A stretch of 52,314 nucleotides of DNA from Savagea sp. Lineage in GTDB: Bacteria; Bacillota; Bacilli; Bacillales_A; Planococcaceae. The stretch is from NCBI GenBank assembly GCA_030146155.1, contig JASLCF010000106.1, positions 1-52,314 on the forward strand, read 5' to 3'. The notes beneath the pieces were generated by a model. That model made no database searches. It was given only the letters and a program-made list of their open reading frames with translations, and was not told the DNA's origin. The position numbers and the translations under genes were made by a program. The first letter of the stretch is position 1. Each line of letters begins with the position of its first letter. Of the stretch, positions 4,752-52,253 are shown piece by piece.

Positions 4752-7022
4752 ATGAAAACTAGAGGAAGACTCGTCGCCTTTTTATTACTCATCGTCTTAT
4801 TTGCTTCGACGATTGGGCTCACATCAAAAGGAATTTTAAAAGATGTGAAATTAGGCTTAGATTTACAAGGTGGATTTGAAGTATTATATCAAGTTGAACC
4901 TTTAAAGGAAGGCGATAAAGTAGACGAGGCGTTACTTACAGATATATCTGATGCTTTAGGACGTCGTGTCAACGTACTTGGAGTAAGTGAGCCAAATATC
5001 CAAGTTGAATCAGGTAATCGTATTCGAGTACAGATTGCTGGAATTGATGATCAACAACAAGCGAGAGATTTATTATCTACACAAGCTAATTTAACGTTTC
5101 GAGATGTAGAAGATAATTTATTGCTTGATGGAAATGATTTAAAAGCTGGGCGTGCGAAAGCAGATTTCCACCCAGATACAAAAAAACCAGTCGTTACACT
5201 TGAATTAAAAAGTGCCGATAAATTTGGAGAAGTAACAACTGCGATTTCTCAGAAAAAACCAAACAACCAAATGGTGATTTGGTTAGATTTTGAAGAAGGG
5301 GTCGACTCTTTTGTTGAAGAAATTCAAAAAGAGAATCCTAAATTTATTTCTGCCCCTAACGTAGATCGTCCGATTTTATCTTCAAATGTTGAAATCTCTG
5401 GAAGCTTTACAATTGAAGAAACAAAAAATTTGGCAGGGATTTTAAATGCGGGAGCGTTACCTGTTAAATTAACAGAGATTTATTCTACTTCAGTAGGTGC
5501 TCAGTTTGGTGAACAAGCACTAGATAAGACAATCGTAGCAGGCGTAGTTGGTATTGGACTCATTTTTGTATTTATGATGTTATTTTACCGTGTCCCTGGT
5601 TTAGTTGCAGTAGCAACATTATCTATCTATGTTTACATTATCTTACTTGTCTTTACAAAAATTAATGGAGTCCTCACTCTACCAGGTATTGCAGCATTGA
5701 TGCTTGGAGTAGGGATGGCTGTCGATGCAAATATCTTAACTTATGAAAGAATTCGAGAAGAGTTAAGAGTAGGTAAATCGATTTCATCTGCATTTAAATC
5801 AGGTGCGAAAAGTTCTTTCACAGCGATTTTAGATGCGAACATCACGACTCTTTTAGCAGCAGTGGTTCTCTTTATTTATGGAACGAGTTCTGTTAAAGGG
5901 TTTGCGACAATGTTAATCATTAGTATTTTAGCTTCTTTCTTAACAGCTGTTTGGGGTTCAAGATTATTATTAGGTTTACTTGTCCAAAGTGGTGTACTCG
6001 ATAATAAGCCACAACTCTTCGGCATTAAGAAAAAAGATGTGCATAATATTGTAGAAGGTGTAGACACACTTGACCTTACGACAAAATTTGATCGCTTTGA
6101 TTTTGTTCACTCACGTAAGAAATACTATGTTTTTTCAAGTGTCTTAATTATCACTGGAATCATTATGTTATCGGTATTTAAGCTAAACCTTGGTATTGAC
6201 TTCTCAAGTGGTACACGTGTAGAAGTAATGGCGAAAGAACCGATTAACATTGAACAATTTGAAAAAGATTTAGCAGTTGTCGGTCATGATGTAAAAGACA
6301 TTGTGATTTCAGGTGACAATAAAGAAATCGGAGTGGCTCGATTCCAAGAAGAATTTACACAAGAGCAAGTCAATACATTTAAAAATGAATTAAAAGAAAT
6401 TTATGGTTCAGAACCAAACGTCTCTACTGTTTCTGATACAGTAGGAAAAGAATTGGCCAAAAATGCTTTATTTGCTTTAATGTATGCTGCATTAGGAATC
6501 ATTATCTATGTTGCCTTTAGATTTGAATGGCGCATGGGCGTTGCTTCAATTGTCGGCCTATTGCATGATGCATTCTTTATGATTGCGATGTTTAGTATTG
6601 TACGGATGGAAGTAGATATTACATTTATTGCGGCTGTCTTAACAATTGTCGGGTATTCAATTAACGATACGATCGTTACCTTTGACCGTATTCGTGAAAA
6701 CATGAACCGAGTAGGTAAAATTGCAACGGCAGATCAATTAGCGGATATGGTCAATAAATCATTGAGACAAACATTAGGGCGTTCTGTGAACACTGTCTTA
6801 ACAGTCATCTTCGTGGTTGTATCACTGATTGCATTAGGTGCAGATTCAATTAAACCATTCTCAGTTGCTTTATTAATTGGATTGTTAGCAGGGACGTATT
6901 CTTCAATTTTCATTTCAGCTCAAATCTGGTTTGATTTGAAGAAAAAAGAATTGGAAAAAACGGGTACAATTAAAATTGACAAAGACAAACCAAAGTGGGG
7001 TTCTGACGAGCCAGTTGTCTAA
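4752..7022 (+). CDS. secDF: Protein translocase subunit SecDF (fused)
   Basis: LGLDLQGG, GMAVDANIL, LGIDFSSG, GYSINDTIVTFDRIRE. Confidence 0.98.
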   Translation: MKTRGRLVAFLLLIVLFASTIGLTSKGILKDVKLGLDLQGGFEVLYQVEPLKEGDKVDEALLTDISDALGRRVNVLGVSEPNIQVESGNRIRVQIAGIDDQQQARDLLSTQANLTFRDVEDNLLLDGNDLKAGRAKADFHPDTKKPVVTLELKSADKFGEVTTAISQKKPNNQMVIWLDFEEGVDSFVEEIQKENPKFISAPNVDRPILSSNVEISGSFTIEETKNLAGILNAGALPVKLTEIYSTSVGAQFGEQALDKTIVAGVVGIGLIFVFMMLFYRVPGLVAVATLSIYVYIILLVFTKINGVLTLPGIAALMLGVGMAVDANILTYERIREELRVGKSISSAFKSGAKSSFTAILDANITTLLAAVVLFIYGTSSVKGFATMLIISILASFLTAVWGSRLLLGLLVQSGVLDNKPQLFGIKKKDVHNIVEGVDTLDLTTKFDRFDFVHSRKKYYVFSSVLIITGIIMLSVFKLNLGIDFSSGTRVEVMAKEPINIEQFEKDLAVVGHDVKDIVISGDNKEIGVARFQEEFTQEQVNTFKNELKEIYGSEPNVSTVSDTVGKELAKNALFALMYAALGIIIYVAFRFEWRMGVASIVGLLHDAFFMIAMFSIVRMEVDITFIAAVLTIVGYSINDTIVTFDRIRENMNRVGKIATADQLADMVNKSLRQTLGRSVNTVLTVIFVVVSLIALGADSIKPFSVALLIGLLAGTYSSIFISAQIWFDLKKKELEKTGTIKIDKDKPKWGSDEPVV

Positions 7023-15040: not shown

Positions 15041-15156
15041 TTGATTATCGGTTGTAGTGAAATCTTTGAGCAGATAAAAAGAGAAGAAATGAATTTGCAG
15101 TTGACTTGCTGTGAGAAAATGATTAATATGAATGATACAAACGAATTCAAAAAATA

Positions 15157-15413
15157 GCTAAGGATCCAAAAAGTAAAACGATTCACAAGATGTCTAAAGA
15201 GAAAGTGAACTGGGCTGAAATTCACTTGTCATCGAATGGTTTGAACAACAGTGGGGAGGCGTTCTATCGAAAGGCGAACAGGCTGATTAGGTAGAAACGG
15301 AACTGGCCGTTATCCAGTATCGAGTGGACTGCAATAAGGAGTCAATTTGGGTGGAACCGCGGAAGCTACAAAGCTCTCGTCCCTATTTTTTAATAGGGAT
15401 GAGGGCTTTTTTT
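15157..15413 (+). promoter_or_regulatory. T-box riboswitch leader of hisS-aspS
   Basis: AGTA/GAA loop-E, AGAGA bulge, GGGCTGAAA distal loop, GCCGTTA F-box, T-box GGGTGGAACCGCG (15349-15361), terminator 15373-15413. Confidence 0.93.
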
Positions 15414-18517: not shown

Positions 18518-18704
18518 GCAAATCCTGAGGTGTACGTCAGAAACGATACAGTTTTGACCTACAATTATATCGTCAGGGAGCTTTACATTCATTTAGGGAT
18601 GACATGCCACGTCTAGTGGACGTCAAAAGTAAATGTGCGAGCACCCACCTGCTAAAATGCAGGCTCAAAACGATACAGTTTTCAACGGCACATTTGGGAT
18701 TTGT
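18518..18704 (+). ncRNA. ssrS: 6S RNA (6S-1/bsrA type)
   Basis: Terminal pairing gcaaatcc/ggatttgt; motifs TCCTGAGGTGT, GGGAGC, GCACCCACCTGC, AACGGCAC as in Bacillus 6S-1; conserved position between aspS and tcdA. Confidence 0.92.
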
Positions 18705-45409: not shown

Positions 45410-46402
45410 ATGAGAAAAGTTTGGCAATCGATTGATAAAGGTGAACTCGCCCCTGTTTATTTAATATATGGAGAAGAAGAGGCTTTAATCCAAGAGACAT
45501 TACGAAAGATTGAAATGGCGTTATCGACTACCGCCTATGAAAAAATCTCTTTTGATTTAGAACAACAACCTGTTGAACAATTGTTAGAAGAAGCCGATAC
45601 ATTTCCTTTTTTAGTTGATAAAAAATTAATTATTGGTCATTCCGCTGCATTTTTGCAAGGAACAGAACAAAAAATAAGCCATGCACTGGATTACACGATG
45701 GAGTGGTTAAAAAATCCATCGCCTACAGCAATTGTTGTCTTTATTGTTTATTCCGAGAAACTGGACAAGCGTAAAAAAATTACGAAAGCGATGCTGAAAG
45801 ATACGGTTGTAGTAGAAGCCTTACCTTTAACAGGAAAAGATTTACTCGTGACGTTGCAACAACATGCTTCAAAAAATAGTTATGAATTAACGAGAGAAGC
45901 TGGCATCCTTCTCATTCAAAAGATAGGGGAACATCTACAGCAATTGCTGAATGATTTAGATAAAGTGATGACCTATTGTGGGGAAGAAGATGTGATTACT
46001 CCGCAACATATTGAAGAAGTCATTACAGAAAGTAAGGAAGAGGATGTCTTTGAATTGACGAATGCCTTTGTCAAAGGAGATGTACAAAAAGCTCTTCAAA
46101 TCTATCAAGACTTATTGAGTTTTGGCAACGACCCTATCATGTTGACCTCATTGATTGCAGGCCAAATAAGGCTAACACTCTATGCAAGAGGTTATATGAA
46201 AAAAGGGTTACGTGATCAAGAAATTGCACGAGAAATGGGTGTGCACCCGTATCGAATCAAACTAGCAAGTGGCGCATTTCGTGGGGTTTCTGAGACGCAG
46301 TTATTAGAGAAACTCAGTTTGTTAGCAGAAGTCGACTATCAATTGAAATCAAGTAGTATTAAACGTGATCAAATTTTAGAATTATTTTTATTAAAACAAT
46401 AG
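45410..46402 (+). CDS. holA: DNA polymerase III subunit delta
   Basis: PVYLIYGEE, EEADTFPF, EKLDKRKK, GVHPYRIKLA. Confidence 0.95.
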   Translation: MRKVWQSIDKGELAPVYLIYGEEEALIQETLRKIEMALSTTAYEKISFDLEQQPVEQLLEEADTFPFLVDKKLIIGHSAAFLQGTEQKISHALDYTMEWLKNPSPTAIVVFIVYSEKLDKRKKITKAMLKDTVVVEALPLTGKDLLVTLQQHASKNSYELTREAGILLIQKIGEHLQQLLNDLDKVMTYCGEEDVITPQHIEEVITESKEEDVFELTNAFVKGDVQKALQIYQDLLSFGNDPIMLTSLIAGQIRLTLYARGYMKKGLRDQEIAREMGVHPYRIKLASGAFRGVSETQLLEKLSLLAEVDYQLKSSSIKRDQILELFLLKQ

Positions 46403-46465
46403 AAAGAGCCTGCCTCTTTCTTTTTTTTGTACAAAAAAAGGATCACCCGTGAGGATCATCCTTTT
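46401..46465. terminator. Back-to-back terminators of holA (+) and rpsT (-)
   Basis: agaaagag-cctgc-ctctttct plus T run; aaaaaaaggat...atcctttt. Confidence 0.65.
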
Positions 46466-46471
46466 ACGCAA

Positions 46472-46720
46472 TTATGCTTTTTTCATAAGACGTGATTTTT
46501 GACGAGCTGCAGTGTTTTTGTGGATTAATCCTTTACCTGCTGCAGTGTCTAAACGTTTAACAGCGTCTTTAAGTAATGCAGTAGCGTTTTCGTCATTCGC
46601 TGCTACAGCTGCTTCTGCTTTACGCATTGCTGTACGCATCGCTGCTTTGTAATTTGAGTTTTGTTCGTTAACTTTTGCACTTTTACGAACGCGTTTAATA
46701 GCACCTTTAATGTTTGGCAT
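46472..46720 (-). CDS. rpsT: 30S ribosomal protein S20
   Basis: MPNIKGAIKRV...KGLIHKNTAARQKSRL; GGAGGTG RBS. Confidence 0.98.
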   Translation of the reverse strand: MPNIKGAIKRVRKSAKVNEQNSNYKAAMRTAMRKAEAAVAANDENATALLKDAVKRLDTAAGKGLIHKNTAARQKSRLMKKA

Positions 46721-46883
46721 TTCATTCACCTCCAACTTATGAGTAAGAAGAGTGTGTCCTCAATCGTAATTTCAGATTCTCTTTACAACAAGCATTATTT
46801 TATCAAAGAAATGAACAAAGTGCAATGCTAATCTACACGAGAAAAAAATAACTTATAATCTATCAAATTGTATTCAGTCAACA

Positions 46884-46912
46884 TTGAAGTGTTGAAGATG
46901 TACTGTTATACT
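46884..46912 (+). promoter_or_regulatory. SigA promoter of lepA
   Basis: TTGAAG-17bp-TATACT with extended TG. Confidence 0.65.
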
Positions 46913-46942
46913 ACTATTAGCATATTTAGGAGTGAACAGCGA

Positions 46943-48766
46943 ATGAATACTAAAGATAGATTAGAACGTCAAAAAAATATTCGGAACTTTTCAATTATCG
47001 CGCATATTGACCATGGAAAAAGTACATTAGCCGATCGAATATTAGAAAAGACGAATACTGTAACTGCACGTGAAATGAAGACTCGTACATTGGATTCAAT
47101 GGAGTTAGAACAAGAACGTGGCATTACGATTAAATTAAATGCCGTACAATTGCAATATCAAGCCAGAAATGGTGAAGAGTATACTTTTCATTTAATTGAT
47201 ACACCTGGTCACGTCGATTTCACTTATGAAGTGTCTAGAAGTTTAGCAGCTTGTGAAGGGGCTATCCTGGTGGTCGATGCCGCACAAGGAATCGAAGCCC
47301 AAACATTAGCAAACGTTTATTTAGCATTGGACAATGATTTAGAAATCTTACCTGTTATTAATAAAATAGATTTACCCGCAGCTGATCCGGAACGTGTCAG
47401 AGGAGAGGTAGAAGATGTAATCGGTATTGATGCATCTGAAGCTGTACTTGCCTCTGCTAAAGCGGGAATCGGAATTGAAGACATTTTAGAGCAAATTGTT
47501 GAGAAAGTTCCCGCACCACAAGGCGATCCAACAGCTCCCTTACAAGCTTTAATTTTCGACTCCCACTATGACCAGTATAAAGGGGTTATAGTCAACATTC
47601 GTATTATCGAAGGTACGGTGAAGCCAGGTGATCAAATTCGCATGATGGCAACTGGGAAAGAATTCGAAGTAATCGAAGTAGGGGTATTTACACCACATGC
47701 AAAAAATACGGAAGAATTAACAGTCGGGGATGTAGGTTTCCTTTCTGCATCCATTAAAAATGTTGGGGATACACAAGTAGGGGATACGGTTACACATGTT
47801 GAACGTCCGGCATCTGAACCACTGCCAGGGTATCGTCGAATGAATCCGATGGTGTTCTGTGGGCTTTACCCGATTGATACGTCGAAATACGTTGATTTAC
47901 GTGAGGCTTTAGAAAAATTAGAGTTGAATGACTCAGCCTTAGAATATGAAGCTGAAACTTCACAAGCTTTAGGTTTTGGTTATCGCTGTGGATTTTTAGG
48001 TTTATTGCATATGGAAATTATTCAAGAACGAATTGAACGTGAGTTTGGTATTGATTTGATTACGACTGCACCATCTGTTATTTACAATGTCGTACAAACA
48101 GACGGTACTGCAACTAAAGTAGATAACCCGTCATTCATGCCAGATCCTCAAAAGATTGATTATGTAGAAGAACCTTATGTCAAGGCATCAATTATGGTTC
48201 CAGAAACATATGTAGGGGCAGTGATGGAGCTGTGTCAGAAGAAACGTGGGAATTTTATGACGATGGATTATTTAGATTCAACACGTGTCAACGTCATTTA
48301 TGAATTACCACTTGCTGAAATTGTTTACGACTTCTTCGACCAATTGAAATCACAAACTAAAGGATATGCTTCTTTAGATTATGAGATTATTGGGTATAAA
48401 CAATCTAAATTAGTGAAAATGGATATTTTATTAAATGGTGAGAAAGTAGATGCGTTGAGCTTCATTGTTCACCGTGATTTCAGTTATGAACGCGGAAAAG
48501 CCATTGTCGATAAGTTACGTGATTTAATTCCGAGACAGCAATTTGAGGTTCCTGTGCAAGCCGCTGTGGGTCAAAAAATTGTAGCTCGTTCAACGATTAA
48601 ATCATTAGGAAAGAACGTCTTGGCTAAATGTTACGGCGGAGATATTTCTCGTAAACGTAAATTGTTGGATAAACAAAAAGAAGGTAAAAAACGGATGAAG
48701 CAAGTCGGTTCCGTTGAGATACCTCAAGAAGCCTTTATGGCGGTACTGAAGATGGATGAGGACTAA
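46943..48766 (+). CDS. lepA: Translation elongation factor 4 (LepA)
   Basis: [45 protein letters not shown] 46943 after AGGAGTG. Confidence 0.98.
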
Positions 48767-49148: not shown

Positions 49149-49177
49149 TTGACAACGGATTAATTCATTGTTAAAAT
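49149..49177 (+). promoter_or_regulatory. SigA promoter upstream of the SAM riboswitch
   Basis: TTGACA-17bp-TAAAAT with extended TG. Confidence 0.8.
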
Positions 49178-49196: not shown

Positions 49197-49304
49197 TTCC
49201 TTATCGAGAGCAAGGGAGGCATCTGGGCTGATGATCTTGCGGCAACCATCCATTTATGGAACGGTGCTAAATCCAGCAGGGGATTGTCCCTGAAAGATGA
49301 GGAA
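49197..49304 (+). promoter_or_regulatory. SAM-I (S-box) riboswitch aptamer
   Basis: P1 TTCCTTATC/GATGAGGAA, ATCGAGAG, kink-turn GA..GATGA, GGCAACC...GGTGCTAAATCC, pseudoknot CTGG/CCAG. Confidence 0.95.
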
Positions 49305-49323
49305 GAGTGACTCTTTTACATCG

Positions 49324-49352
49324 ACCTCTTCCTATCATGGAAAGGTTTTTTT
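49324..49352 (+). terminator. SAM riboswitch regulatory terminator
   Basis: acct-c-ttcc-tatcat-ggaa-aggt plus T run; its 5' arm ctcttcct can pair alternatively with aggaagag (49300-07) as an antiterminator. Confidence 0.8.
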
Positions 49353-49373
49353 ATTTGTAAAGGAGAGAGAAAA

Positions 49374-49643
49374 ATGGTCATTTTAAAAACAACGTGGATT
49401 AAAGGTTACACCCCAATTGCAGTAGAAGCGGTTCGTATTCATTTATTTAACTTTAGAGTAGACGTATTAGCAGGAGAAGCCATCGAAGCATTTTTTACTG
49501 CTGTCCAGACGGATGAGGCTTGGTTAGAAGTGAGAGTGAATGAGAGCGCTATTCATTATTACAAACGTGAAATGATTGCTAAAATCGAATGTATAGTGAC
49601 AGATGAGCCGAATCCATTTTTGTTGTATGAGAATAAAGACTAG
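49374..49643 (+). CDS. Hypothetical 89-aa protein under SAM-I riboswitch control
   Basis: AAGGAG RBS, clean ORF directly after the riboswitch terminator; no family recognised. Confidence 0.8.
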   Translation: MVILKTTWIKGYTPIAVEAVRIHLFNFRVDVLAGEAIEAFFTAVQTDEAWLEVRVNESAIHYYKREMIAKIECIVTDEPNPFLLYENKD

Positions 49644-49665: not shown

Positions 49666-49694
49666 TTGACAATAAAGTGTAAAGAATATAGATT
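49666..49694 (+). promoter_or_regulatory. SigA promoter upstream of the TPP riboswitch
   Basis: TTGACA-17bp-TAGATT. Confidence 0.75.
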
Positions 49695-49714
49695 GAAGAT
49701 AACTTAAATAGTTT

Positions 49715-49796
49715 CACTAGGGGTGTCTAACGACTGAGATGAGCATACGCTCGAACCCTTTGAACCTGAACTAGTTCATACTAGCGTAGGAAAGTG
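49715..49796 (+). promoter_or_regulatory. TPP (THI-box) riboswitch aptamer
   Basis: CACTAGGGGTG...CTGAGA...CCCTTTGAACCTGAACTAGTTCATACTAGCGTAGGAAAGTG matches the TPP consensus. Confidence 0.96.
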
Positions 49797-49870
49797 CAGC
49801 AATCGGATACATAAAATAGGCAAATCATCAATCAATGGTGATTGTTTATTGATGTTTGCCGTTTATTCAT

Positions 49871-49901
49871 GCAACTTTCTGAAAAGAGAGTTGCTTTTTT
49901 T
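49871..49901 (+). terminator. TPP riboswitch regulatory terminator
   Basis: gcaactttct-gaaa-agagagttgc plus T7; 5' arm tgcaacttt can pair with aptamer 3' end aaagtgca as an antiterminator. Confidence 0.85.
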
Positions 49902-49953
49902 ATGGCATCCTTCACTTTCATTATTTAAGTAAAAAATATTGAGGAGTGGAAAA

Positions 49954-50706
49954 ATGAGTAGAACAGTATTAGTCACAGGAAGTAGTCAAGGACTAGGTGC
50001 AGAAATTGTAAGGACTTTAGCAAGACAAGGAAACAAAGTCATTATTAACTATTATAAAAGTAAAGAAGCTGCGGAAGCTCTGGTCAAAGAAATTGGAGAA
50101 GAACAAGCAGTTGCTTACTATGCAGATGTCACGAATCGTGAAGACGTTGATCAAATGGTAGCAAAAGCTACGTCTCATTTCGGACAAATCGATGTAGTCG
50201 TCAATAACGCATTAGTGGGCTTTAAATTTGATCCTGTGAAACAAAAACCATTTGCAGAATTAGCATGGGCAGATTATCAACAACAAATTGATGGAACTTT
50301 GCAAGCGGCTTTCCATATCGCACAAAGCGTAGTGCCTCAGTTTAAAGAACGCCAACAAGGAACAATCATTAGCATTGGGACTAATTTATATCAAAACCCT
50401 GTCGTTCCGTATCACGAATATACAACTGCCAAGGCTGCATTGATTGGATTTACGAGAAACATCGCAGCGGAGCTTGGGCAATATGGTATCCGTGCAAATA
50501 TGGTATCGGGTGGACTACTCAGAACGACAAATGCAAGTGCTGTTACAACGCCAGAAGTGTTTGATTTAATTGCTTCTTCGACACCTATTCGAAAAGTAAC
50601 GACACCACAAGATGTAGCCAATATGGTAGCTTACCTCGCTTCTGAACAAGCCGATGGAATTACTGGACAAAATATTACAGTAGATGGCGGTTTAACGATG
50701 AATTAA
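49954..50706 (+). CDS. SDR family oxidoreductase (FabG-like, thiamine-regulon OarX-type)
   Basis: TGSSQGLG, VNNA, IGTNLYQNPVVPYHEYTTAK (YxxxK), ITGQNITVDGG; ATG 49954 after GAGGAG. Confidence 0.9.
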   Translation: MSRTVLVTGSSQGLGAEIVRTLARQGNKVIINYYKSKEAAEALVKEIGEEQAVAYYADVTNREDVDQMVAKATSHFGQIDVVVNNALVGFKFDPVKQKPFAELAWADYQQQIDGTLQAAFHIAQSVVPQFKERQQGTIISIGTNLYQNPVVPYHEYTTAKAALIGFTRNIAAELGQYGIRANMVSGGLLRTTNASAVTTPEVFDLIASSTPIRKVTTPQDVANMVAYLASEQADGITGQNITVDGGLTMN

Positions 50707-50758
50707 CCTTTCGAACTCATTTCTTAACAAGATGAAAGGAGAAAGGGGATGTGGCATC

Positions 50759-52054
50759 ATGTCAAATAAAAAAATGCATCTAGGTGTTTTATTATATGGA
50801 TGCGGGCATCATCAAGCAGCGTGGATGATGTCCAACTCATCTATTGAAAAAATAGGTGAGATTACTTATTATCAATCACTTGCTCAACTTGCTGAACGAG
50901 GAAAGTTAGATGCGGTATTTTTTGCGGATAATCATTCGTTTACAGCACAAAGTGACAGTGAAATGCCAGCCTTCTGGTTTGATCCAATTGTCAATTTAAC
51001 TGCAATTTCACAAGTGACCACCCATGTGGGACTGGTTTGCACGATTTCAAGTACGTTTTCTAATCCATTTACAGCAGCAAGACAGTTGCTTAGTCTTGAT
51101 CATTTGTCAAAAGGGCGTGTAGGTTGGAATTTGGTCACTTCTATGAGAGATTGGGAAGCACAAAATCATAGTATGGAGGCATTACCCAAGCACGAGTTAC
51201 GTTATGAAAAAGCAACTGAATTTGCAGAAGTGATGGAGAAGCTTTTTCAATCTTGGTCCTCAGCTGACTTTATTCATCAAAAAGAAGAGGGGCGTCTGAT
51301 TGAATCGGAAAATATTCAGCCTATCCATCATCAAGGCAAGTATTTTGAAGTCAAGGGCCCCCTGACGACGCCGATCAGTCCACAAGGTCGCCCTGTAGCC
51401 ATGCAAGCAGGTGCATCAGAACCTGGTGTCCGTTTAGCGGCACAGTTTGCAGAAGTCGTATATGCAGTGGCTTGGAATAAGAAACAGGCTAAACGGTTCA
51501 GAGAGAGAGTTCAGCAAGCGATTGCACAATCGAATCAACCGGAACGTTCTGTAAAAATATTACCTGGACTTGTCACTTATGTGGGCAGCACAAGAGAAGA
51601 AGCTTATGCGAAGAAAAGGAAACTAGACGAACAATTACCCGTTGAAACAGCGTTGGCACAATTGAGTTTCTTTATCCAGCAAGATTGTTCAACATGGGAG
51701 TTAGACGAGTTAGTTCCTGATTTGCCACCTTTAGAAGAGTTCGAAGGTCCAGCTGGTCGATATGAGACGATTTTAGAAATCATTGAAGATAAAAAACCGA
51801 CTGTTAGAGAGCTGCTAGGCTATCTCAATGCAGGAGGCGGTCATCTCACTTTAATCGGTACACCTGAAGAAGTTGTAGATGAAATGGAGACTTGGTTAAA
51901 AGAGGGTGTTGCGGATGGCTTTAATTTAATGCCGCCAGAACTCCCGGCAAGTTTAGATGATTTTGTTACCTTGATTGTTCCTGAATTACAACGGAGAGGC
52001 CTTTTTAGAACAGAATATGAGGGGCAAACATTTCGCTCTCACCTCGGAATATAA
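50759..52054 (+). CDS. LLM-class FMNH2-dependent monooxygenase (NtaA/DmoA/DszA family)
   Basis: AERGKLDAVFFAD, ARQLLSLDHLSKGRVGWNLVTS, SPQGRPVAMQAGAS, ADGFNLMP, VPELQRRGLFRTEYEGQTFR; ATG 50759 after AAAGGGGA. Confidence 0.93.
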   Translation: MSNKKMHLGVLLYGCGHHQAAWMMSNSSIEKIGEITYYQSLAQLAERGKLDAVFFADNHSFTAQSDSEMPAFWFDPIVNLTAISQVTTHVGLVCTISSTFSNPFTAARQLLSLDHLSKGRVGWNLVTSMRDWEAQNHSMEALPKHELRYEKATEFAEVMEKLFQSWSSADFIHQKEEGRLIESENIQPIHHQGKYFEVKGPLTTPISPQGRPVAMQAGASEPGVRLAAQFAEVVYAVAWNKKQAKRFRERVQQAIAQSNQPERSVKILPGLVTYVGSTREEAYAKKRKLDEQLPVETALAQLSFFIQQDCSTWELDELVPDLPPLEEFEGPAGRYETILEIIEDKKPTVRELLGYLNAGGGHLTLIGTPEEVVDEMETWLKEGVADGFNLMPPELPASLDDFVTLIVPELQRRGLFRTEYEGQTFRSHLGI

Positions 52055-52088
52055 ATGCAGTAGCCAGTTTTTGGCTCTGCATTTTTTT
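52053..52088 (+). terminator. Intrinsic terminator ending the TPP-regulated operon
   Basis: aaatgcag-t-agcca-gtttt-tggct-ctgcattt plus T run. Confidence 0.8.
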
Positions 52089-52253
52089 ATCCTATCACAA
52101 GCGTTGGTAAAGAGTTTTACTTCCATTTGAAATCGCCTTTATTGTGTTTGATTTGTAAACGTTTATAGTGTACTGATGAAAAATGTAGCACACCTATCAG
52201 CTTGTATGAGTAAAATGTTTGTGGATGGAAAAATAATAAATCTATAACATACC

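Follow-up and report, generated by a model that had tools for sequence, protein, structure and literature searches.

A riboswitch-controlled oarX-fmnO operon in Savagea and a possible aldehyde step in thiamine pyrimidine salvage

What do a short-chain dehydrogenase/reductase (SDR) and a flavin-dependent monooxygenase do behind a thiamine pyrophosphate (TPP) riboswitch? The question is raised by contig JASLCF010000106.1 of Savagea sp. (assembly GCA_030146155.1), a stretch of 52,314 nucleotides referred to here as the window. Positions 49666-52092 of its forward strand hold, in this order, a promoter-like site, a TPP aptamer, a small hairpin, a terminator, the SDR gene oarX, a 52-nt spacer, the monooxygenase gene fmnO and a closing terminator (Table 1). 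Rodionov et al. are said to have been the first to flag oarX, in 2002. We regard it as practically certain that the locus belongs to the thiamine regulon as an operon of two genes, oarX and fmnO, as regards both the identity of its parts and its membership of a published kind. This kind of operon is already known, and the window copy is an orthologue of the published pair; the instance itself is not news, and its interest lies in the open reaction of an orphan pair. The present analysis adds a wider census, a threonine signature in OarX, two cases in which fmnO has an aptamer of its own, and two testable leads, namely an aldehyde intermediate and a pyrimidine rather than a thiazole product. 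The explanation that we favour as a whole, at not far short of an even chance, is an operon that TPP switches off and whose enzymes would carry out pyrimidine-aldehyde chemistry.

The names OarX, FmnO and oarX-fmnO come from Oliveira-Filho, Rodionov and Hanson (ACS Omega 2024; PMC11223231), who note that the link of oarX to thiamine dates from 2002 and that the SEED database had flagged the operonic pair long before. They found oarX in 87 genomes (46 Firmicutes, 22 Actinobacteria and 19 Proteobacteria), all encoding ThiE, and fmnO in 22 of these, always adjoining oarX and frequently behind a TPP riboswitch. They deduced that OarX can function without FmnO, but perhaps not vice versa, and they proposed salvage or detoxification of a thiamine breakdown product. 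A first-pass annotation, made from the letters of the window, had presented the pair as a candidate for an undescribed pathway; that word has to be given up, because PMC11223231 describes both the operon and the same idea of salvage. The gene pair, its order, the upstream TPP riboswitch and the phyla are those of the published operon, with no essential difference. The window copy stands alone as two genes with their own riboswitch and terminator, in a small genome apparently without ThiC, ThiG and TenA (the assembly being 90% complete). A direct comparison is offered by Planococcus halotolerans, which PMC11223231 names as carrying oarX beside tenI-thiOSGF. Its locus (L059, the same place as L008) reads TPP aptamer-tenI-thiO-thiS-thiG-thiF-oarX-fmnO, and its OarX and FmnO are 79% and 68% identical to those of the window.

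The SDR of the window is OarX and not the housekeeping FabG. It is the sole protein of the genome above the cut-off of NF006393, a model on which OarX proteins from three phyla score 401-430 bits, and its gene lies behind the TPP riboswitch. On the FabG equivalog model TIGR01830 it reaches 171 bits, below the cut-off of 297.75, and it is not sited in a fab cluster; the genuine FabG of the same genome is encoded in a plsX-fabD-fabG-acpP cluster on contig C75 and scores 342.5 bits on TIGR01830 and 161 bits on NF006393. OarX shares with FabG (TIGR01830; PDB 3osu) the classical SDR fold, a TGxxxGxG-type cofactor motif, YxxxK and its length, but differs in its sub-cut-off score, in riboswitch control, and in having Thr for the Ser of the catalytic set. 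In the alignment, Thr143 of the window protein (in 'SIGT') falls on the second S of 'NLSS' in Staphylococcus aureus FabG (PDB 3osu), which we take to be the catalytic serine, while Tyr156 and Lys160 are intact. Thr occupies this position in 79 of 79 fmnO-linked OarX proteins and in 7 of 7 other OarX-like sequences, a signature that was found in this analysis and lies outside the published definition of OarX. The first-pass annotation was thus right to name this SDR OarX, as PMC11223231 does, and to place Thr at the usual Ser position, which it took to fit a role other than that of FabG. Although NF006393 bears the name '3-oxoacyl-ACP reductase', it catches OarX of three phyla (390-430 bits); the name is probably a misleading label that spreads through automatic annotation, and it touches many genome annotations.

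FmnO belongs to the NtaA/DmoA family, which it matches over its full length (TIGR03860), and is encoded directly 3' of oarX. Its nearest solved structures are YtnJ/MoxC (E 1e-84), NtaA, EmoA, DszA, DmoA, LadA and riboflavin lyase, and the matches to 1yw1 and 6ask (YtnJ/MoxC), 3sdo (NtaA), 5dqp (EmoA), 5tlc (DszA), 6ak1 (DmoA) and 5w48 (RcaE) range from E 1e-84 to 6e-48. NtaA, EmoA, DmoA and riboflavin lyase hydroxylate a carbon beside nitrogen or sulfur, and a carbonyl compound is released as a result. Judged by these relatives, FmnO probably uses reduced flavin mononucleotide (FMNH2) and O2 to oxygenate a carbon or sulfur beside a heteroatom. Unlike the characterised members of the family, FmnO forms an orthologous group of its own, is TPP-controlled, and has no reductase partner encoded alongside. 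Members of the group are 52-72% identical and paralogues in the same genomes no more than 40%, which sets FmnO apart as a separate clade; PMC11223231 likewise gives FmnO as at most about 45% identical to characterised family members.

Transcription of the pair is very probably governed by attenuation, with the riboswitch acting as an off-switch; this is read from predicted structures. A whole-genome covariance search returns the same aptamer match as the Rfam model, and none of 200 shuffles of the leader reaches its folding stability (z = -4.56). From the end of the aptamer to the oarX start codon there are 144 nt. The predicted expression platform consists of a terminator with a competing antiterminator, a layout usual for transcriptional off-switches. 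A duplex between 49789-49798 and the 5' arm of the terminator (49870-49880) is predicted at -10.6 kcal/mol, whereas the minimum-free-energy fold places 49794-49801 in the aptamer stem P1; because the 3' strand of P1 is common to both, the two pairings are mutually exclusive. When TPP is plentiful, P1 would be closed and the terminator freed, so that transcription would stop ahead of oarX. At low TPP, the terminator arm would instead be paired with the 3' strand of P1, and the polymerase would read both genes as far as the closing terminator. The promoter is plausible and not more, because matches of its class are not enriched in the region (9 found versus 7.8 +/- 2.7 in shuffles). The spacer between the genes (50707-50758) was scanned and holds no promoter-like and no terminator-like site, in agreement with the first-pass annotation, which had seen no obvious terminator there and had placed every part of the operon where we find it or within a few bases. 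RNA-library contigs from three runs in two studies cover both genes and the upstream open reading frame (ORF) at a depth of about 3-14, and one of them (X15, record 4) bridges the gene junction (50529-51159); DNA carry-over is possible and contigs cannot demonstrate a single transcript, and they were given no weight.

Table 1. Predicted and matched features of the oarX-fmnO operon and of the leader region preceding it, in window coordinates.
Feature	Position	Strand	Details
SAM (S-adenosylmethionine) riboswitch, RF00162, and the 89-aa ORF that it precedes	49198-49643 (ORF at 49374-49643)		84.1 bits; promoter-like site ahead at 49149-49177
Sigma-70-like promoter	49666-49694	+	TTGACA-17 nt-TAGATT; 10/12 consensus matches
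TPP aptamer, RF00059	49709-49809	+	76.2 bits (gathering score 54.3); E 2.5e-13; model positions 1-105 of 105
Antiterminator strand (predicted)	49789-49798	+	GGAAAGUGCA; common to the 3' side of aptamer stem P1
Intervening hairpin, aptamer to terminator	49820-49861	+	seen in minimum-free-energy folds
Riboswitch intrinsic terminator (predicted)	49871-49901	+	hairpin 49871-49894 with 10-bp stem and 4-nt loop, then seven U; -14.2 kcal/mol
oarX, SDR, 250 aa	49954-50706	+	PF13561, 198.5 bits; NF006393/PRK08642, 389.7 bits (cut-off 292)
Intergenic spacer, 52 nt	50707-50758	+	purine-rich ribosome-binding-site-like stretch AAAGGAGAAAGGGG ahead of the fmnO ATG
fmnO, FMN-dependent luciferase-like monooxygenase, 431 aa	50759-52054	+	PF00296; TIGR03860 (NtaA/DmoA), 486.7 bits (cut-off 279.7)
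Closing intrinsic terminator (predicted)	52053-52092	+	core 52062-52076 plus T run; extended stem 52053-52085, -16.9 kcal/mol

The arrangement is conserved well beyond the window. A scan of one genome per species gave 466 confirmed fmnO relatives, and the census was made on the best 80, which comprise 38 loci from Bacillota (62-72% identity) and 42 from Actinomycetota and Pseudomonadota (52-56%). The oarX gene lies directly upstream of fmnO in 78 of the 80, the exceptions being L028, which starts 55 nt before fmnO and cannot be judged, and L029, which is without oarX. A covariance model built from 19 aptamers detects a same-strand upstream TPP aptamer in 77 of the 80; L028 and L041 have no upstream sequence, and L091 has only a divergent aptamer. 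This last locus, from Achromobacter aestuarii, is the one assessable fmnO locus without an aptamer of its own, and its aptamer (4957-5062, confirmed by Rfam) faces a sodium:solute-symporter gene. The Rfam model confirms the aptamer in all 14 loci submitted, of which 11 had fed the 19-aptamer model, so that only the others are independent. Co-occurrence of the two enzymes behind TPP aptamers, and recovery of RF00059 upstream of their homologues, had been named in the first-pass annotation as ways of checking it, and its view of the pair as one TPP-controlled unit is upheld by both. The three outcomes that it had set against itself did not appear: no promoter-like site for the monooxygenase was seen in the scanned spacer, the two genes do occur together, and the SDR is not a plain FabG.

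In two settings fmnO has an aptamer separate from that of oarX. Both Jeotgalibacillus loci leave 458-460 nt between oarX and fmnO, and a second aptamer lies there (L045 at 5667-5767 and L046 at 5669-5769, the latter scoring 83.5 bits by Rfam). The two genes are unlinked in Bacillus dakarensis: fmnO follows an aptamer (L029, 5729-7290) and has no oarX within 6 kb, and a 57%-identical oarX is found elsewhere (L110) with its own aptamer, beside thiM and thiD. These separate aptamers tie fmnO to the TPP regulon in its own right. When the 918 ORFs of the 80 loci were clustered, the only neighbour that recurred beyond oarX and fmnO was a sodium:solute-symporter gene, found in 15 loci with its own aptamer on the other strand.

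A second census covered the 151 genomes of the window's GTDB order, which consists of a single family. Orthologues of FmnO occur in 18 of them, the window's included, at 66-72% identity (E <=5e-202) and with a clean gap to paralogues of 40% or less. OarX is present in the same 18 (72-84% identity), on the same strand and directly upstream of fmnO, with about 30-100 nt between the matched parts. In each of the 17 fmnO genomes apart from that of the window, a TPP aptamer on the same strand precedes oarX. The distance is 112-350 nt in 11 of them and 3.1-4.0 kb in six, all of one genus; in the two of the six that were examined, the intervening genes are tenI-thiO-thiS-thiG-thiF (P. halotolerans) or thiM-thiD-thiE-thiW. 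A second group of OarX proteins, without fmnO, was found in 12 genomes at 46-57% identity, all those tested scoring above the NF006393 cut-off, and in 11 of the 12 an aptamer on the same strand precedes oarX at a distance of 173 nt to 5.2 kb. Seven genomes (G125:C5, G148:C1, G086:C37, G084:C83, G120:C52, G124:C1 and G069:C5) have two TPP aptamers in tandem, separated by about 55-60 nt, ahead of operons with oarX at their end; where examined (L010, L011), these are thiM-thiD-thiE-oarX.

One genome carries a second oarX-fmnO copy with fmnO in two pieces (G099:C47:3885-5894), and another an fmnO with one in-frame TAA (G027:C29:19546-20832). At L016 (G015:C1:637991-640799), a different NtaA-family monooxygenase, 34% identical to FmnO, is divergent from a TPP-controlled oarX-like gene; an aptamer of its own was not detected for this monooxygenase.

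A third arrangement, found outside the window, suggests what OarX may act on. Here a TPP aptamer is followed by luxE, luxC, the ATPase and permease genes of an ATP-binding cassette (ABC) transporter, a gene for an NMT1/THI5-family binding protein and an OarX-like SDR gene. Homologues of LuxC occur in 3 of the 151 family genomes and in 4 of 401 genomes of a phylum sample, all seven in such a cluster (L012, L013, L014, L106, L107, L108 and L109). The OarX-like SDR is adjacent in 7 of 7, the TPP aptamer is present in 6 of 6 assessable clusters, and the ABC transporter with its NMT1-family binding protein is encoded in 5 of 7. Of the two genomes without the transporter, one has the SDR followed by a ThiL-ThiN fusion, in an operon that faces a TPP-controlled thiD-thiM. 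One of the seven genomes belongs to the window's genus and also has oarX-fmnO. The linked SDRs have NF006393 as their best model (238-300 bits; cut-off 292) and are 39-48% identical to the OarX of the window.

LuxE and LuxC together convert a carboxylic acid to an aldehyde, as established for the Lux fatty-acid reductase. The TPP-controlled clusters share its PF05893 and PF04443 domains, but they are distant homologues of the bioluminescence LuxC-LuxE (E 5e-16 to 7xc6, the only solved relative), lack LuxAB and LuxD, and have thiamine genes and an aptamer nearby. Because the SDR is placed after this acid-to-aldehyde pair, it is most simply read, by analogy, as an aldehyde reductase closing a route from acid through aldehyde to alcohol, which suggests that OarX too may be an aldehyde reductase. 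An aldehyde-forming monooxygenase followed by an aldehyde reductase would make a coherent pair, and this would fit OarX working without FmnO. The search is thereby narrowed to an aldehyde substrate, testable by ordinary assays. In the literature searched, we found no mention of the TPP-controlled luxE-luxC-OarX-like clusters and nothing relevant on the pyrimidine or thiazole aldehydes; 'Lux' is absent from the main text of PMC11223231, whose supplementary tables may list such clusters under another label. That paper does report occasional acyl-CoA synthetase neighbours and suggests that OarX might reduce the thioester (PMC11223231).

The thiamine regulon of the host bears on which half of the molecule is involved. 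The host assembly (2.23 Mb in 222 contigs, 90% complete; nearest named relative Savagea serpentis, by the cross-species fmnO scan) contains four TPP aptamers, the other three of which precede thiM-thiD-thiE-thiW, an ABC importer (ThiY-like) and a yko-type energy-coupling factor (ECF) transporter. The binding protein of the importer matches ThiY, which binds N-formyl-aminomethylpyrimidine (PDB 3ix1, E 1.7e-36). ThiC, a real ThiG and TenA were not found in this assembly, and TenA was not found in any of three genomes of the genus. On present evidence, the host lives largely by thiamine salvage.

A sample of 50 fmnO genomes out of the 80, picked so as to cover many genera, was searched for the kinases. 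ThiD scores above cut-off in all 50. ThiM turned up in 33: in all 20 Bacillota searched, in 6 of the 14 Pseudomonadota (one hit being a fragment of 51 residues) and in 7 of the 16 Actinomycetota. If free hydroxyethylthiazole (HET) were the product, the host would need ThiM. About a third of the searched fmnO genomes have no detectable hydroxyethylthiazole kinase and all have ThiD, which points to the pyrimidine half. Because ThiD is present throughout and ThiM is not, hydroxymethylpyrimidine (HMP), the compound that ThiD phosphorylates, fits every host as product and thiazole does not, and the gene content favours HMP.

In thiamine and its known pyrimidine breakdown products, the C5-methylene of the pyrimidine is bonded to nitrogen, and this is the kind of bond that NtaA-type enzymes attack. 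We propose that FmnO, with FMNH2 from an unlinked reductase, would hydroxylate a heteroatom-adjacent carbon of an imported thiamine breakdown product, with the C5-methylene-N bond of the pyrimidine moiety as the likeliest site; candidate substrates are aminomethylpyrimidine, its N-formyl form and damaged whole thiamine. The hydroxylated product would collapse to an aldehyde, 4-amino-2-methylpyrimidine-5-carbaldehyde, which OarX would reduce with NAD(P)H to the alcohol HMP, and ThiD and ThiE would then consume it. This biochemical role is offered tentatively and with some doubt. In a bolder version, which we think unlikely, FmnO would act as a C-N lyase on the thiamine pyrimidine, oxidatively and independently of TenA, OarX would be its dedicated aldehyde reductase, and LuxE-LuxC would elsewhere supply the same kind of aldehyde from the corresponding carboxylic acid. 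If true, vitamin B1 salvage would gain a new redox branch centred on an aldehyde, and oarX, an orphan since 2002, would have its function.

A related route was reportedly described by Jenkins et al. in 2007, in which base-degraded thiamine is salvaged through ThiXYZ import of N-formyl-aminomethylpyrimidine, the deformylase YlmB and the hydrolase TenA. Both routes lie in the TPP regulon and have the same proposed end product, HMP for ThiD, and the window genome has a ThiY-like binding protein. The route proposed for oarX-fmnO would be oxidative and reductive, whereas the ThiXYZ/YlmB/TenA route is hydrolytic. TenA and FmnO occur together in 13 of 18 genomes, and FmnO is thus no simple replacement for TenA.

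Genetic tests in Corynebacterium glutamicum have already excluded the obvious substrates (PMC11223231). In strain ATCC 14067, which lacks thiC and so depends on HMP, PCA is no substitute for HMP; MTA, oxo-HET, oxo-thiamin and thiamin acetic acid fail to rescue a thiG mutant, and the latter two are non-toxic at <=1 uM; and in the thiG background the further loss of oarX-fmnO (triple mutant) leaves growth on thiamin or on HMP plus HET unchanged (PMC11223231). As far as the main text of PMC11223231 shows, these negatives do not contradict the pyrimidine proposal, because the whole-thiamine oxidation products were tested as sources of thiazole and not of pyrimidine, for which PCA was the sole compound tried, and because PCA needs an activation that the C. 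glutamicum operon does not provide. Aldehyde substrates lie outside these tests.

Several observations nevertheless count against the pyrimidine-aldehyde proposal. Deletion of oarX-fmnO in C. glutamicum changed growth on neither thiamin, HMP nor HET, five thiamine oxidation products were not salvaged there, and the authors take the clustering with thiOSGF, tenI and thiM as a sign of a thiazole or whole-thiamine substrate (PMC11223231); the clustering of oarX with thiazole genes is real. The count of 33 ThiM genomes out of 50 rests, for its absences, on a single Pfam model and on genomes of unreported completeness. The absence of ThiC from the host may be an assembly gap, because two other genomes of the genus, both complete, have ThiC; nor is it a signature of fmnO, since 16 of 18 fmnO genomes are without ThiC but so are 112 of the 151 overall, and the genomes are inter-related, which makes the comparison uninformative. 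Replacement of TenA by FmnO finds no anticorrelation to support it, TenA being present in 13 of 18 fmnO genomes versus 107 of 151 overall. No flavin reductase recurs beside the operon among the 80 loci, in a rough screen affected by shadow ORFs in high-GC loci. The aldehyde lead is itself indirect: a quick tree with outgroups on very long branches places the LuxCE-linked SDRs beside and not inside the OarX groups, so that by sequence they appear to be a sister group of OarX and not OarX proper, 3 of the 7 keep Ser, and the binding protein of their clusters is only remotely ThiY-like (E 1.5e-10). The promoter, terminators and antiterminator of the operon are predictions, and so is the substrate proposed here.

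Thiazole salvage, the reading favoured by PMC11223231 and by the first-pass annotation, would have OarX (with FmnO where present) restore HET from an altered thiazole, with 4-methylthiazole-5-acetaldehyde as one conceivable substrate for the reduction. It draws on the position of oarX at the tail of Planococcus operons with tenI-thiO-thiS-thiG-thiF and, in other genera, of operons with thiM-thiD-thiE(-thiW), which PMC11223231 likewise reports, on the presence of ThiM in every Bacillota fmnO genome searched, and on the host's thiM and thiazole transporter gene thiW behind a TPP aptamer. However, the 17 of 50 genomes in which ThiM was not found, all of them with ThiD, could make no use of free HET, neither MTA nor oxo-HET rescued the C. 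glutamicum thiG mutant (PMC11223231), and a natural compound that would yield thiazole acetaldehyde under attack by an NtaA-type enzyme is not easy to suggest. We consider it improbable; of the earlier suggestion, the direction of salvage stands, as in PMC11223231, and the leaning to thiazole is weakened by the same kinase counts. The enzymes might instead repair or detoxify whole thiamine, turning damaged or antimetabolite forms of thiamine or TPP into usable or harmless ones without free HMP or HET. Such a role is compatible with the many hosts without ThiM, with the TPP-controlled sodium:solute-symporter (ThiV-like) genes beside Pseudomonadota operons (15 of 80 loci) and with the yko-type ECF transporter in the host's same regulon. 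Against this stand the failure of oxo-thiamin and thiamin acetic acid either to rescue as thiazole sources or to be toxic at <=1 uM, the growth of the triple mutant on thiamin like its parent (both PMC11223231), and the LuxE-LuxC link, which points to a small carboxylic acid becoming an alcohol; its chance of being right is small.

Control by a riboswitch cannot in itself tell salvage from sparing, and the enzymes could process a metabolite that accumulates, or provide one that becomes scarce, once TPP-dependent enzymes fail, much as B12-independent isozymes stand behind B12 riboswitches. Such a bypass predicts the lack of a thiamine phenotype in C. glutamicum (PMC11223231), but it sits poorly with oarX lying time and again within operons for thiamine synthesis, for salvage kinases or for transporters of thiamine type, and with ThiE being encoded in all 87 oarX genomes (PMC11223231), and we rate it very improbable. 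That the SDR is a FabG isozyme lying by chance next to an unrelated monooxygenase might be argued from the name of NF006393 and from the overall similarity of the SDR to FabG structures (E 1e-35). The conservation data refute this for practical purposes, with adjacency in 78 of 80 loci and TPP control in 77 of 80 across three phyla, Thr for Ser in 79 of 79, a score below the FabG cut-off and a true FabG in plsX-fabD-fabG-acpP, and we give it virtually no credence.

Close upstream of the operon lie holA, rpsT and lepA (45410-48766), followed by a SAM riboswitch with an 89-aa ORF (Table 1). The ORF has no Pfam or NCBIfam match, and its protein-atlas leads are all sub-threshold. No terminator-like site was found after this ORF and ahead of the TPP leader, so transcripts begun at the SAM-controlled promoter could conceivably run on into that leader. 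An Rfam scan of three related loci (L022 from Savagea serpentis, L053 and L025), each covering several kb upstream of oarX, gave no SAM riboswitch. Elsewhere in the window are a T-box leader (15152-15387, 96.6 bits) and a 6S RNA (18519-18704, 106.1 bits).

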